In this document: piece after piece, positions 236 to 5,037 of the stretch
Numbering within the stretch: position 1 is the stretch's first letter
Layout: each line of letters opens with the position of its first letter
Origin: a virus
Taxonomy: Duplodnaviria; Heunggongvirae; Uroviricota; Caudoviricetes
Reading direction: 5' to 3' (one strand)
IMG/VR virus record: IMGVR_UViG_2740892234_000006
DNA: 5,037 bases
Notes under the pieces: generated by a model
Told to the model about the DNA's origin: nothing
The model's input: only the letters and a program-made list of their open reading frames with translations
Database searches by the model: none
Position numbers and translations under genes: made by a program

Positions 236-426
236 CGTTCACAGTAAAAACCATTCCTGACATGCTCGTTGAGGCATATGAAAATCAGACCGAGGTAGCC
301 AGAATACTGAACTGTAGTCGCAACACGGTCAGAAAATACACTGGCGATAAAGAAGGGAAAAGACACGCTATCGTCAACGGTGTTCTTATGGTTCACCGCG
401 GATGGGGTAAAGATACTGATGCGTGA
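232..426 (+). CDS. ninH: NinH, small DNA-binding protein of the nin region
   Basis: 64-aa [61 protein letters not shown]..., close to lambda NinH as recalled ([24 protein letters not shown]...). Position between ninG and Q is the canonical order. Confidence 0.85.
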
Positions 427-853
427 TATCCGGCAGGTTCTTGAGCGCTGGGGGGCATGGGCGGCAAATAACTATGAGGATGTTACATGGTCGCCCATTG
501 CTGCCGGATTTAAGGGACTGATCCCCGAAAAAGTAAAATCACGTCCACAGTGCTGTGACGATGATGCGATGGTGATATGCGGGTGCATAGCCCGCCTTTA
601 CCGGAACAATCGCGATCTGCATGACTTGCTGGTTGATTATTACGTGTTGGGGGAGACGTTCATGGCGTTGGCACGGAAACATGGGTGCTCTGACACCTGT
701 ATAGGTAAACGCCTTCACAAAGCGGAGGGGATTGTTGAAGGCATGCTGATGATGCTGGGAGTGAGGCTTGAGATGGATCGGTATGTTGAGCGTGAATTGC
801 CGGGAGGGAGAACCTCTGTATTTTATCAGCGAAAAAATAGTTTACGATCGTAA
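419..853 (+). CDS. Q: Late-gene antitermination protein Q (short, 144-aa type as in phage 21/933W-like lambdoids)
   Basis: ORF track gives 380-853, but 380 is GTG. ATG at 419 overlaps the ninH stop (ATGCGTGA) and gives a 144-aa product [24 protein letters not shown]... with Cys-rich segment [18 protein letters not shown]. Followed by an AT-rich region, terminators and tRNAs as in Stx-phage Q regions. Start could be 380 (GTG); family subtype is from recall. Confidence 0.85.
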
Positions 854-900
854 AAATCTGCATATCATGATAAGAGTGGTTACATTGCCACGCAGTCGAA

Positions 901-923
901 CCCGCCGATGCGCGGGTTTTTTT
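901..923 (+). terminator. Intrinsic terminator-like hairpin 47 nt after the Q stop
   Basis: CCCGC (901-905) / GCGGG (912-916), 6-nt loop, then T7 (917-923). Confidence 0.55.
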
Positions 924-959
924 GTACCCCGAATCCTGTGAGCTATACGGAAAGTACAC

Positions 960-1100
960 AGAAAGGAAGGTGCGACCGTAATTAATAACAAAATCTTAAA
1001 AATCGCATATAGCACTATTAGTTTTCTAAATATTGTATATTTTAAGTATTGCAGGATAACCCTGTAACGAAGTTTGCGTAACAGCATTTTGCTCTACGAG
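960..1100 (+). promoter_or_regulatory. Candidate location of late promoter PR' and Q-utilisation (qut) site; exact -35/-10 not resolved
   Basis: AT-rich intergenic stretch between Q and a strong terminator, holding several weak sigma70-like hexamers (e.g. TTTTCT 1022-1027, TATATT 1036-1041, TAAGTA 1043-1048). In lambdoid phages PR' lies just downstream of Q and yields a short tR'-terminated RNA. Placement is inference. Confidence 0.3.
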
Positions 1101-1103
1101 TTT

Positions 1104-1132
1104 GCCAGCCTCCCCCAGTGGCTGGCTTTTTT
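1104..1132 (+). terminator. Strong intrinsic terminator, candidate tR'
   Basis: Perfect 7-bp stem GCCAGCC (1104-1110) / GGCTGGC (1120-1126), 9-nt loop, T6 (1127-1132). Confidence 0.7.
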
Positions 1133-1140
1133 ATGTCCGT

Positions 1141-1254
1141 AGCGTCAAAGCAGCAATGGCGCTAGGGCGTCGTGCAATTGGCGTTGAGCTGGAGAGCGGG
1201 CGTTTTGAGCAGACGGTCAGGGAAGTTCAGAATGTAGTCAGTCAGAACGGATGA
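1141..1254 (+). pseudogene. Remnant of the C-terminus of a DNA methyltransferase (no start codon)
   Basis: Frame open from 1060 to the TGA at 1252-1254 with no ATG/GTG start. Translation ...SVKAAMALGRRAIGVELESGRFEQTVREVQNVVSQNG* resembles the conserved ...GRRxIGxEL C-terminal motif of N6-A/N4-C DNA methyltransferases. Too short and start-less to be functional. Confidence 0.5.
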
Positions 1255-1294: not shown

Positions 1295-1370
1295 GGCCCT
1301 TTAGCTCAGTGGTGAGAGCGAGCGACTCATAATCGCCAGGTCGCTGGTTCAAATCCAGCAAGGGCCACCA
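1295..1370 (+). tRNA. ileZ: tRNA with anticodon CAU, Ile2 (lysidine) type; alternatively elongator Met
   Basis: 76-nt cloverleaf: acceptor GGCCCTT/AAGGGCC, D arm GCTC-AGTGGTGA-GAGC, anticodon loop CTCATAA, T arm GCTGG-TTCAAAT-CCAGC, discriminator A, encoded CCA. Near-identical to E. coli ileX as recalled; an ileZ-like gene is known downstream of Q in Stx phages. Confidence 0.85.
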
Positions 1371-1377
1371 TCACATA

Positions 1378-1454
1378 CCGCCATTAGCTCATCGGGATAG
1401 AGCGTCAGCCTTCGAAGCTGGTTGCGCGGGGTTCGAGTCCTCGATGGCGGTCCA
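1378..1454 (+). tRNA. tRNA-Arg, anticodon UCG (decodes rare CGA/CGG)
   Basis: 77-nt cloverleaf: acceptor CCGCCAT/ATGGCGG (unusual C1-G72), D arm GCTC-ATCGGGATA-GAGC, anticodon stem TCAGC/GCTGG, loop CTTCGAA, T arm CGGGG-TTCGAGT-CCTCG, discriminator T, CCA. Confidence 0.8.
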
Positions 1455-1467
1455 TTATCTGCACACT

Positions 1468-1513
1468 GCGTTGTTAGCTCAGCCGGACAGAGCAATTGCC
1501 TTCTAAGCAATCG
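1468..1513 (+). tRNA. 5' portion of a tRNA-Arg(UCU) copy, cut by the N run
   Basis: GCGTTGT-TA-GCTC-AGCCGGACA-GAGC-A-ATTGC-CTTCTAA-GCAAT-CG then Ns. Identical to the 5' half of the tRNA at 1569-1645 except for one D-loop substitution. Confidence 0.55.
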
Positions 1514-1523
1514 NNNNNNNNNN
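1514..1523. other. Run of 10 N (gap or masked bases) inside a tRNA copy
   Basis: Directly visible; flanks belong to two different tRNA types. Confidence 0.95.
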
Positions 1524-1555
1524 CTGGCGGGGTTCAAGTCCCCGATGGCGGTCCA
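1524..1555 (+). tRNA. 3' portion of an Arg(UCG)-like tRNA copy (T arm and acceptor 3' strand) following the N run
   Basis: CGGGG-TTCAAGT-CCCCG-ATGGCGG-T-CCA. The acceptor 3' strand matches the Arg(UCG) tRNA at 1378-1454, not the 5' fragment before the gap, so the two fragments are from different tRNA types. Confidence 0.5.
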
Positions 1556-1568
1556 TTATCAGCATCAT

Positions 1569-1645
1569 GCGTTGTTAGCTCAGTCGGACAGAGCAATTGC
1601 CTTCTAAGCAATCGGTCACTGGTTCGAATCCAGTACAACGCGCCA
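1569..1645 (+). tRNA. tRNA-Arg, anticodon UCU (decodes rare AGA/AGG)
   Basis: 77-nt cloverleaf: acceptor GCGTTGT/ACAACGC, D arm GCTC-AGTCGGACA-GAGC, anticodon stem ATTGC/GCAAT, loop CTTCTAA, T arm ACTGG-TTCGAAT-CCAGT, discriminator G, CCA. Confidence 0.9.
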
Positions 1646-1680: not shown

Positions 1681-1924
1681 ATTACAGGAAAGACACTGGA
1701 CAGTGAAATGTTAAATGCCTCACAATTCAGGCAGTTGATGATTGTCTGGTTGACGGAGAGTTGTTAAAAAAGTTTTGCATGGTGAATCCCCCTGAGCGGA
1801 GGGGCGACTGGTGACGGTATAATCTCTGATTATCAAAACGAGAATGACGAGGGTTTAGTGGCACCGGGCTGAACTCACCGGGAGGCACCCGGCACCATGC
1901 AATGGCACATAGCGCCACTCTCCA

Positions 1925-1948
1925 GCCCCTCTCCGGAGGGGCTTTCTT
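1925..1948 (+). terminator. Intrinsic terminator-like hairpin inside leader copy 1
   Basis: Perfect 7-bp stem GCCCCTC/GAGGGGC, loop TCCG, then TTTCTT. Directly followed by A6 and a second hairpin GCCCGCG...CGCGGGC (1961-1982), which reads as a terminator on the - strand. Confidence 0.5.
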
Positions 1949-2051
1949 ATGGACAAAAAAGCCCGCGCTGGGAGACGCGGGCGGCAAGGAATAAACAATG
2001 AAACGTGAAGTAATATTTCAGCTGGCGAATAATACCCTATAGTAATCACTC

Positions 2052-2820: not shown

Positions 2821-2952
2821 GTATCCGCGCCACGCCCGGCGCATATCAACCACAGAGCCTTTCGGGGGTGAGCTTACGGAGTGGTCAGTGTGACTTTCTC
2901 TGTGGGCAGATCGCTCCCGGGCGTTGGCTCACCCACCCAAAGGAACGTCACG

Positions 2953-3111
2953 ATGTTTGGTATTTTTGGTAAAAAAAGCCCGCAGAGCGGCAACGGAAAT
3001 TAAAAAGTTTGAAAAACGCGATCTGGCACAGGTGGTGATTAACGCCGCCTACCTGGTGGCCTATGCAGATGGTGAATGTGAGGCTTCCTAGAAAGCGAAG
3101 ATCGAACAGGT
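2953..3111 (+). pseudogene. Degenerate partial copy of the TerB-like gene (start codon present, then frameshift and in-frame TAG)
   Basis: ATG 2953 with RBS AAAGGAA gives MFGIFGKKSPQSGNGN* (stop 3001-3003). The following ~120 nt are ~90% identical to 3122-3243 but in a different frame, consistent with an extra A in the A7 run at 2971-2977, and carry TCC TAG (3086-3091) where the downstream copy has TCA GAG. Could also reflect low-quality contig-end sequence. Confidence 0.45.
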
Positions 3112-3121
3112 NNNNNNNNNN
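3112..3121. other. Run of 10 N between two partial copies of the TerB-like gene
   Basis: Directly visible. Confidence 0.95.
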
Positions 3122-3136
3122 GCCCGCCGAGCGGCA

Positions 3137-3535
3137 GTGGAAATTAAAAAGTTTGAGAAACGTGATCTGGCACAGGCGGTTATTAATGCTGCCTATCTGG
3201 TGGCCTATGCAGATGGTGAATGTGAGGCTTCAGAGAAAGCGAAGATCGAGCAGATCTTGCGTAACCAGCCTGCGTTGTCCGCGTTTACGTCAGAAATTAA
3301 TGCGATTAGCGCAACCATTATCGGTCAGCTGGATACGAACTTTAAAATTGGTCGTCGAGCGGCATTGCGTGAAATTGAAGATGTGAAACACGATACGCGT
3401 GAAGCGGAAGATGTGCTGGATGTGGCGGTGGCCATTGCGGAGGCAGACGGCGAAATTGAGCCGGAAGAGCGCAAGGTGCTGGAAGAGATTGCCGGTGTTC
3501 TGGGTCTTCGTCTGGAGAATTACCTGTTACGGTAA
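3137..3535 (+). CDS. TerB-like (tellurite-resistance TerB family) acidic protein; 5' end uncertain because the frame is open back to the N run at 3121
   Basis: ORF ...EIKKFEKRDLAQAVINAAYLVAYADGECEASEKAKIEQIL...AVAIAEADGEIEPEERKVLEEIAGVLGL... contains two A-x-ADGE-x-E repeats typical of TerB-family domains, as recalled. The true N-terminus is probably MFGIFGKK..., as in the upstream degenerate copy. Confidence 0.6.
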   Translation: MEIKKFEKRDLAQAVINAAYLVAYADGECEASEKAKIEQILRNQPALSAFTSEINAISATIIGQLDTNFKIGRRAALREIEDVKHDTREAEDVLDVAVAIAEADGEIEPEERKVLEEIAGVLGLRLENYLLR

Positions 3536-3860
3536 AACTGCGCCTGACTGTGGCTGCACTCCTGCTGTTTCTGGTGGTGATGGTGGATTTCACCAGCAGA
3601 ATCATGTCGGTGCTGGCGGATGGGGTGCTGGTCTGCGGCATTATGGTATTGCTGTGGCCGGTGATAAAAAGAAACAGCCTGCATAATGCTTGATTTTTTT
3701 ATTTGCTGTTTATTAAAAATACTACTGCATGGTGAATCCCCCTGTGCGGTGGGGCAATCAGCAAGAAGGAATATGGGGTAATCGCGGATTCAGGTGCTGA
3801 TACTGAATTCACCGGGAGGCACCCGGCACCATGCAAGAAAAAGAATGTGCATGCAAACAT

Positions 3861-3886
3861 GCCCCTCTCCGGAGGGGCATTTTTTA
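3861..3886 (+). terminator. Intrinsic terminator-like hairpin inside leader copy 2
   Basis: GCCCCTC-TCCG-GAGGGGC then ATTTTTT. Followed by A6 and hairpin GCCCGAA-TGGG-TTCGGGC (3899-3916), which reads as a terminator on the - strand. Confidence 0.55.
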
Positions 3887-3978
3887 TGGGTAAAAAATGC
3901 CCGAATGGGTTCGGGCAATAGCATGAGATACTGATATTGTTGTGTTGTTATCGTGTGGATTTTAACCAGGGTTTATCA

Positions 3979-4004
3979 GGCTGCGCAACTGCGTGGCCTT
4001 TTTT
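3979..4004 (+). terminator. Intrinsic terminator inside leader copy 2
   Basis: GGCTGCGC-AACT-GCGTGGCC (8-bp stem with two G.U wobbles) then T6. Confidence 0.6.
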
Positions 4005-4100
4005 CATTTCTTGGGCTGTAGTCCCCGTGTGTCATTCAGGCTTCCGGACTACAGCCCACTCCATATCTGATTTAATACACTATCCCGGCCGGGAGGAATA

Positions 4101-4155
4101 ATGACATTTAAACATTATGATGTTGTCAGGGCGGCGTCGCCGTCAGACCTTGCGG
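4101..4155 (+). CDS. 5' fragment of a DUF1737-type gene (nanS-p paralogue), cut after 18 codons by the N run
   Basis: RBS GGGAGGA then ATG; MTFKHYDVVRAASPSDLA... matches the N-terminus of the downstream gene (MSIKHYDVIRAASPSDLAEK...). Confidence 0.5.
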
Positions 4156-4165
4156 NNNNNNNNNN
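4156..4165. other. Run of 10 N cutting a DUF1737-type gene after 18 codons
   Basis: Directly visible; the last 29 nt before the gap are identical to 4347-4375 in the downstream nanS-p gene. Confidence 0.95.
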
Positions 4166-4208
4166 ATTTCTGTTTTTCTCAAACTATCATCGTTATCCCT
4201 TTATTTTC

Positions 4209-4235
4209 GGCTGCGCATGGCGCGGCCTTTTTTTT
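4209..4235 (+). terminator. Intrinsic terminator
   Basis: GGCTGCGC-ATG-GCGCGGCC (8-bp stem, one wobble) then T8. Confidence 0.65.
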
Positions 4236-4321: not shown

Positions 4322-5037
4322 ATGTCGATTAAACATTACGATGTTATCAGGGCGGCGTCGCCGTCAGACCTTGCGGAAAAGCTGACACACAAACTGAAAG
4401 AGGGCTGGCAGCCATACGGCGGACCGGTTGCCATTACGCCGTACACACTGATGCAGGCGGTGGCTATTGAAGGAGAGCCACAGGTCGGCCCTTCATCTGA
4501 GCCGGATTGGTACTACGTCATCGTACTGGCCGGGCAGTCCAATGCCATGGCTTACGGTGAAGGGCTTCCGCTGCCGGATTCATACGATGCTCCGGATCCG
4601 CGCATTAAACAGCTGGCGCGCCGCAGTACAGTGACGCCGGGCGGGGCTGTCTGCAGATATAACGATATTATTCCGGCTGACCACTGTCTGCATGATGTGC
4701 AGGATATGAGTACGCTGAATCATCCGAGGGCTGACCTGAGCAAAGGGCAGTACGGCTGTGTCGGCCAGGGTTTACATATTGCCAAAAAACTGCTCCCGTA
4801 TATCCCGAATAACGCGGGGATCCTGCTGGTACCATGCTGTCGTGGTGGTTCGGCATTTACCCAGGGCGCGGAGGGGACATTCAGCGAGTCCACGGGGGCC
4901 AGTCAGGATTCGGCACGCTGGGGAGTGGGCAAGCCGTTATATCAGGATCTGATTTCCCGCACAAAAGCGGCATTGCAGAAAAATCCCAAAAACGTTCTGC
5001 TGGCCGTCTGCTGGATGCAGGGTGAGTTTGACATGAG
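4322..5037 (+). CDS. nanS-p: Prophage sialate O-acetylesterase, NanS-p-like (N-terminal DUF1737 domain plus SASA esterase domain); 3' end beyond the window
   Basis: ATG 4322 with RBS GGGAGA. Frame 2 stays open to the window end, which is why it is absent from the ORF track. N-terminus MSIKHYDVIRAASPSDLAEKLTHKLKEGWQPYGGPVAITPYTLMQAVAIEGE is DUF1737-like; the GQSN motif (4532-4543, ...VLAGQSNAMAYGEG...) is the catalytic-serine signature of SASA-family esterases. This gene class sits downstream of stx2 in Stx phages (recall). Confidence 0.8.
   Translation, partial: MSIKHYDVIRAASPSDLAEKLTHKLKEGWQPYGGPVAITPYTLMQAVAIEGEPQVGPSSEPDWYYVIVLAGQSNAMAYGEGLPLPDSYDAPDPRIKQLARRSTVTPGGAVCRYNDIIPADHCLHDVQDMSTLNHPRADLSKGQYGCVGQGLHIAKKLLPYIPNNAGILLVPCCRGGSAFTQGAEGTFSESTGASQDSARWGVGKPLYQDLISRTKAALQKNPKNVLLAVCWMQGEFDM

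Follow-up and report, generated by a model that had tools for sequence, protein, structure and literature searches.

Anti-sRNAs of Lambdoid Prophages

As described by Tree et al. in 2014 (PMC4104026), AgvB was defined as EcOnc01a/b, an Hfq-bound RNA of about 60 nt present in two copies in Escherichia coli O157:H7 Sakai, in the prophages Sp10 and Sp17. The evidence obtained in Sakai comes from Northern blot, RLM-RACE and CRAC, together with EMSA, competition assays in rectal mucus and a dppA-GFP reporter tested with compensatory mutants. AgvB is an Hfq-binding RNA that competes with the dppA mRNA for the same site, forms a duplex with GcvB and relieves the repression of dppA by GcvB without appreciably lowering the GcvB levels, as supported by compensatory mutations, and the deletion of both copies resulted in a lower translation of DppA and a lower competitiveness in bovine terminal rectal mucus (PMC4104026). 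In addition, 82 unique AgvB-GcvB hybrids were detected in vivo by RNase E CLASH (PMC5286369).

AgvB is an Hfq-binding anti-sRNA of approximately 60 nt that EHEC-type E. coli carry in their lambdoid prophages, within the late region. It is transcribed opposite to the phage late operon and ends at a Rho-independent terminator placed back to back with that of an STnc100-type sRNA. The CA-rich 5' end (AUAACAACACAACA), which is unstructured, imitates the CACAACA-type sites of GcvB target mRNAs and, with the help of Hfq, pairs with the G/U-rich R1 seed of GcvB in a stable duplex. The seed is then occupied without destruction of GcvB, and the repression by GcvB of targets such as dppA is relieved.

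A related activity is seen in SroC, derived from the gltIJKL mRNA, and in 3'ETS-leuZ, where, as in AgvB, the activity of an Hfq-dependent sRNA is restricted by its pairing with a target-like site. However, SroC is an mRNA-derived RNA of the core genome, whereas AgvB, a primary transcript of prophage origin, blocks the seed, and there is no sequence homology between them. SroC reportedly triggers the decay of GcvB.

Closer to AgvB are AsxR (EcOnc02, RF02703, from the Stx2 phage Sp5) and EcOnc03 (from Sp9), which have in common with it the promoter region, the slot, convergent to an STnc100-type sRNA, and a scaffold of about 42 nt (GUAUCUCAUGC..UUGCCCGAACCCAYUCGGGC plus a U tail). Thus, the three RNAs were described as having a conserved 3' region of about 42 nt and a variable 5' region of 14-18 nt (PMC4104026). 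Their 5' modules differ from that of AgvB, being CGAUUAUUAAAACGA in AsxR, which targets the FnrS terminator loop, and CGAUAAAAAUGACAAUGCAA in EcOnc03. An antisense RNA of about 271 nt from Sakai Sp4 and Sp15, EcOnc08/EcOnc21/EcOnc42, likewise follows an STnc100-type sRNA in this slot, but it differs from AgvB in terminator hairpin, body and length, and is without the GcvB-complementary tract.

Identity of the Minus-Strand RNA

The window, that is, the whole stretch of 5,037 nt that was analysed (IMG/VR virus record IMGVR_UViG_2740892234_000006), had been read in an earlier note as a possible source of an AgvB-like anti-sRNA on the minus strand. This reading is borne out and can be sharpened, as the minus strand at 3953..3892 is, judged from its sequence, almost certainly the gene for AgvB (EcOnc01), and not merely AgvB-like:

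3892..3953, minus strand: assigned AgvB anti-sRNA gene, 62 nt, with its 5' end (C) at 3953 and the 3' U6 at 3897..3892

The Rfam scan of the window placed RF02702 (AgvB) on the minus strand at 3953..3892 with 96.5 bits and an E-value of 1.5e-18, covering model positions 1-62/62, where the gathering scores are 56 for this family, 63 for RF02703 (AsxR), 42 for RF00022 (GcvB) and 47 for RF02076 (STnc100). The RF02702 consensus is equalled at every base of this segment, with zero mismatches. Moreover, when the Sakai loci were fetched directly from the genome (NC_002695.2) as the reference for comparison, the window copy presented 62/62 identity both with AgvB1 from prophage Sp10 (1941920-1941981, minus strand) and with AgvB2 from prophage Sp17 (3486386-3486447). 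The identity extends to the 50 nt upstream, which are the same in the window, Sp10 and Sp17. The coordinates given for AgvB in Table S2 of PMC4104026 (1941783-1941835) agree with the Sp10 position after a +137 assembly-version offset, the same offset being found for AsxR and EcOnc03. The fold, the GcvB-complementary 5' segment, the prophage slot and the orientation are also the same as in AgvB1 and AgvB2, the sole difference being the host strain and the prophage backbone; the flanks of the window AgvB have about 96-99% identity to various non-O157 and O157 prophages.

Regarding AsxR, RF02703 gives 43 bits at the AgvB site, below its gathering score, and this match is driven by the shared 3' scaffold alone. 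The 5' module of the window RNA is unlike that of AsxR, and no FnrS-complementary module is found in it. The alignment against AgvB, AsxR and GcvB, which the earlier note had proposed, resulted in an exact match with AgvB, a sub-threshold one with AsxR and the assignment of a 12-mer to GcvB nt 71-82, as can be seen below.

At least 611 complete E. coli records, with O157:H7, O145, O103 and O111 among them, have the 86-nt stretch around AgvB at 100% identity, and AgvB is an accessory trait, carried by around one-eighth of the complete E. coli genomes. No RefSeq annotation lies over AgvB in any of the 40 complete-genome matches listed. The element itself is already known, having been described in 2014 and being present in Rfam, and this copy adds no new biology. 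With regard to its activity, we infer that the AgvB copy of the source strain would be expressed and act like Sakai AgvB.

GcvB Seed Match and Predicted Pairing

The candidate had been recognized through a 12-nt tract matching the R1 seed of GcvB. As reference for GcvB, a 206-nt sequence adjoining gcvA in the O157:H7 strain PV15-279 (L002:1201-1406) was used, which scores 199 bits against Rfam RF00022 and is found, as a 206-nt query, in 5426/5426 complete E. coli genomes. The R1 sequence given in the earlier note agrees with this verified GcvB, and the 12-nt match is kept upon proper alignment: TGTTGTGTTGTT, at 3938-3949 on the plus strand and inside ATTGTTGTGTTGTTATCGTGTGG, equals GcvB nt 71-82, in the R1 region, and is the longest word common to the plus strand of the window and GcvB. 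The minus strand carries the C/A-rich complement, followed by a hairpin and U6, as had been pointed out, and the segment predicted to pair is slightly longer than the tract:

3938..3951, minus strand: GcvB-binding segment (predicted pairing), AgvB nt 3-16, AUAACAACACAACA, containing the CACAACA motif, the GcvB-target consensus (PMC4104026)

The pairing prediction suggested in the earlier note was run by RNAcofold and gave 14 consecutive pairs between AgvB nt 3-16 and GcvB nt 71-84, with a ddG of -16.2 kcal/mol. The duplex between the 5' 22 nt of AgvB and GcvB reaches -19.4 kcal/mol, compared to -12.5 +/- 2.7 for shuffles, of which 17/1000 were as good; this significance is moderate because CA-rich shuffles often still pair with the repetitive GU-rich R1. 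These two calculations replaced an unconstrained RNAduplex run of the full AgvB against the full GcvB, which was discarded, as its whole-molecule duplex of -41 kcal/mol is meaningless.

It could be argued that the 12-nt match is due to chance and that the hairpins are mere bidirectional terminators between phage genes, with no functional RNA being made, as G/U- and C/A-rich tracts of low complexity can match randomly and the region is dense in terminators (13 found in the window, 2.9 expected). However, TGTTGTGTTGTT occurs once in the window, against 0.04 occurrences expected from dinucleotide shuffles with one mismatch allowed, and the match to be explained is not of 12 nt but of 62/62 nt to a characterised sRNA plus its promoter region, and hundreds of genomes belonging to different serotypes have this sequence at 100% identity. 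A chance match, whose probability is negligible, is effectively refuted by the identity to AgvB1 and AgvB2.

Fold, Terminators and Promoter

The predicted structure of the AgvB of the window leaves nt 1-21 unpaired in both the MFE and the centroid folds and has an energy of -13.7 kcal/mol, with a z-score of -3.75; RNase structure probing agrees with the predicted AgvB fold (bioRxiv 10.1101/2021.04.25.441314). The structured part is formed by two hairpins, followed by the U tail:

3920..3932, minus strand: small central stem-loop of AgvB, AGUAU-CUC-AUGCU, in the Rfam consensus structure and the MFE fold

3892..3917, minus strand: Rho-independent terminator of AgvB from the terminator scan, with an 8-bp stem-loop TGCCCGAA-CCCA-TTCGGGCA at 3917..3898 and U6 at 3897..3892

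3978..4004, plus strand: late-operon terminator from the terminator scan, hairpin at 3978-3999 followed by a T run

The central stem-loop is part of the 3' scaffold and is conserved in AsxR and EcOnc03, and the 3' end is of the Hfq type, having a terminator and a U tail. The tract had been described as flanked by terminators, which agrees with the terminator scan on both strands: on the minus strand, 3917..3898 followed by U6, and on the plus strand, 3978-3999 followed by its T run, and 3859-3880. The plus-strand terminator at 3978-4004 is conserved in the two copies of this region present in the window (repeat family D9), named copy 1 and copy 2.

Upstream of the 5' end, a promoter can be read from the sequence, at a site that is absent from the list of the promoter scan:

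3959..3988, minus strand: putative AgvB promoter, -35 TTGCGC at 3988..3983, an 18-nt spacer, -10 TAAAAT at 3964..3959 and 5 nt to +1 at 3953

The putative hexamers are a weak match to the consensus (8/12 positions), but AgvB, AsxR and EcOnc03 have a conserved TTGCGC...GGTTAAAAT core in their upstream regions. Transcription of AgvB probably starts from this putative promoter of its own, TTGCGC-18 nt-TAAAAT, and the 5' ends of the Sakai RNA were mapped by RLM-RACE (PMC4104026). The stem of the plus-strand terminator at 3978-3999 contains the -35 element.

Prophage Context and the STnc100 Partner

The window combines sequence from at least two lambdoid prophages in a reference-ordered scaffold, and its apparent tandem duplications are assembly artefacts. 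Runs of ten N at 1514-1523, 2188-2197, 3112-3121 and 4156-4165 divide it into five contig pieces with ends that, in reference coordinates, overlap each other (e.g., 2978-3109 and 3122-3253; 4101-4155 and 4322-4376), and at no single location of a complete E. coli genome was more than 80% of the window found. Consequently, the wider surroundings are in part artificial; the scaffolding does not affect the AgvB locus, which lies wholly inside one piece (3122-4155).

The anti-sRNA faces an STnc100-type sRNA, which is found twice in the window:

3701..3891, plus strand: STnc100-type sense sRNA, copy 2, RF02076 with 139.4 bits, terminator at 3859-3880

1749-1954, plus strand: STnc100-type sense sRNA, copy 1, RF02076 with 158.3 bits

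Copy 2 is the convergent partner of AgvB, with its terminator at 3859-3880 abutting the AgvB 3' end, and has 95-96% identity to the stretches beside Sakai AgvB1 and AgvB2. Both copies correspond to the sense members of the convergent sRNA pairs, in the class of EcOnc05/06/27, such pairs having been described downstream of PR' by Tree et al. (PMC4104026).

A tandem arrangement of the two copies is rejected, as complete genomes place the pieces in separate prophage architectures. The piece with copy 1 is matched at 100% identity by prophages such as those of O111:H- 11128, in which it is located directly between the tRNAs and nanS-p, while the pieces with TerB, copy 2 and AgvB follow an O145/O157-type layout; therefore, the copies represent the same slot of different prophages. 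Neither can copy 1 be regarded as an AgvB sibling with a swapped seed. Its minus strand at 1955-2031 has 96% identity to Sakai Sp4 1179937-1180013, a segment that, with the Table S2 coordinates taken as they stand for Sp4, would coincide with the Hfq-CRAC peak EcOnc08. The terminator scaffold that it was thought to share with AgvB is also another one, since its minus-strand hairpin, GCCCGCG-TCTCCCA-GCGCGGGC at 1982..1961 plus U6, differs from that of AgvB and belongs to a different RNA, a homologue of EcOnc08.

As seen by Pfam, the window encodes NinG, NinH, antiterminator Q, TerB, DUF3927 and a DUF1737+SASA esterase of the nanS-p type. Its order of Q, tRNAs, TerB, DUF3927, STnc100, AgvB (antisense) and nanS-p agrees with that of Sakai Sp10, namely Q, tRNAs, TerB, STnc100, AgvB (antisense) and the esterase gene ECs_1961, and is also found in other complete genomes. 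The location is the one published for AgvB, which lies in the late part of a lambdoid prophage, downstream of Q/PR' and on the strand opposite to the late operon, convergent with a sense sRNA and upstream of a nanS-p-like ORF.

Other elements of the window can be described on their own. The tRNA cluster at 1295-1645 (+) contains a CAU-anticodon gene (tRNA-Ile/ileZ in RefSeq), Arg-UCG and Arg-UCU, according to ARAGORN and Rfam, and the Arg-UCU gene is doubled only through a scaffold join, the copy at 1468-1555 containing an N run. The TerB-family ORF occurs in two versions on the plus strand, 2924-3091 and 3137-3535, the former having an in-frame TAG end (3089-3091) just ahead of an N run; the equivalent in strain 2313 is a RefSeq pseudogene with an internal stop. 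After TerB, a DUF3927 mini-ORF is located at 3550-3693 (+). Further upstream, the region 380-1141 (+) has 96.5% identity to the Q and PR'-tR' region of the Stx1 prophage Sp15 of Sakai, with a tR'-like terminator at approximately 1100-1133. As this region of Sp15 encodes the StxS sRNA (EcOnc15; PMC7547250), a StxS homologue is probably also present in the window by sequence similarity, although the stx genes are absent.

Modular 5' Seeds on a Shared 3' Scaffold

The comparison between the two copies had led to the suggestion of a swappable seed module. The idea itself is real, having already been published for AgvB, AsxR and EcOnc03, but copy 1 does not serve as the comparator, as it stands outside the scaffold group. 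Among 120 IMG/VR loci with the terminator scaffold, only four kinds of 5' module occur: the AgvB type (57), the EcOnc03 type (21), the AsxR type (16) and a fourth type (21).

This fourth module, CGAUUAUAAAAAUGUAUAUCUCAUGCUG..., is placed on the promoter and terminator scaffold of AgvB/AsxR/EcOnc03 (21/120 loci, e.g., L115, L121 and L025) and is not among the three types that Tree et al. aligned from Sakai in 2014. Stx1a-converting phages and phage BP-4795 present near-full-length matches of 84%, a value that refers to the overall match and not to a module assignment.

A search for the 20-nt AgvB-type terminator pattern in species-representative genomes of 185,579 species found it absent, except for two chance-looking matches, in a Myxococcales MAG and in Xanthomonas pisi, which seem unrelated. 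Such a distribution would fit a terminator scaffold that is an accessory trait and is restricted to certain E. coli prophages.

The module counts also bear on whether the minus-strand RNA acts mainly in cis, by antisense or convergent-transcription interference with the late transcript and the nanS-p leader, its pairing with GcvB being incidental. Such a role would fit the perfect complementarity of AgvB to the late-operon transcript crossing it, the overlap of its -35 element with the sense-strand terminator and the presence of antisense RNAs in the same slot of many lambdoid prophages. However, the compensatory mutations and the dppA reporter in the Sakai double deletion (PMC4104026), as well as the CLASH hybrids (PMC5286369), show a trans effect through GcvB. 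In addition, the AgvB-type 5' module is invariant in 57/57 IMG/VR copies while the relatives on the same scaffold bear other modules, which points to selection on a trans-acting seed. A mainly cis-acting RNA is then very unlikely, even though a cis function could exist in addition to the pairing of AgvB with GcvB.

The Plus Strand

The plus strand had also been considered as the source of an RNA over 3892-4004, ending at the terminator at 3978-4004, whose G/U tract would repress CA-rich GcvB targets as a mimic of GcvB. The 12 nt in common with GcvB R1 and the good plus-strand terminator that follows them at 3978-3999 would suit such an RNA, and the late transcripts antiterminated by Q must cross the site, so the tract should exist in RNA during lytic growth. 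However, beyond the 12-mer there is no similarity to GcvB, and Rfam gave no GcvB match at 3892-4004. The promoter scan found no promoter-like site on the plus strand between the STnc100 terminator (3880) and the tract (3938), and in the predicted plus-strand fold the G/U tract is paired with AAUAGCAU, and not single-stranded. A different GcvB hit from Rfam, at 4056-4234 (+), was set aside as chance or artefact, as its 28 bits are below the gathering score of 42 and it spans an N run and a T-rich terminator.

The published CRAC peaks follow the same pattern. The Hfq peaks of the sense strand are located upstream and converge on the anti-sRNAs without overlap, as in EcOnc27/EcOnc02 and EcOnc28/EcOnc03 (PMC4104026), and Table S2 of PMC4104026 has no sense-strand peak at the anti-sRNA position of Sp10, whose rows, EcOnc01a and EcOnc11, are both antisense. 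One sense-strand peak of Sp17, EcOnc06, would map inside STnc100 when an assembly-version offset of around 128-137 nt, itself estimated, is applied. Thus, promoter scan, fold, Rfam and CRAC peak lists offer no support to a plus-strand mimic, which is extremely improbable.

A distinct idea concerns the late transcript itself, which after induction and antitermination by Q would be a perfect complement of AgvB carrying a GcvB-R1-like tract and could titrate or destroy AgvB or bind CA-rich GcvB targets. On the sequence considered here, this has a very slim chance of being correct; if true, the action of the late transcript on AgvB or on GcvB targets would switch the GcvB regulon of the host between the lysogenic and the lytic states.

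Biological Significance

The gene recovered from this window is left unannotated by RefSeq in the 40 matches listed, and reading from the sequence alone was able to recover AgvB correctly. As for its role, AgvB gives EHEC an advantage at the bovine colonisation site. It is the founding example of a phage-encoded anti-sRNA, in which a horizontally acquired RNA reprograms GcvB, a regulatory RNA of the core genome that acts on amino-acid and peptide uptake.
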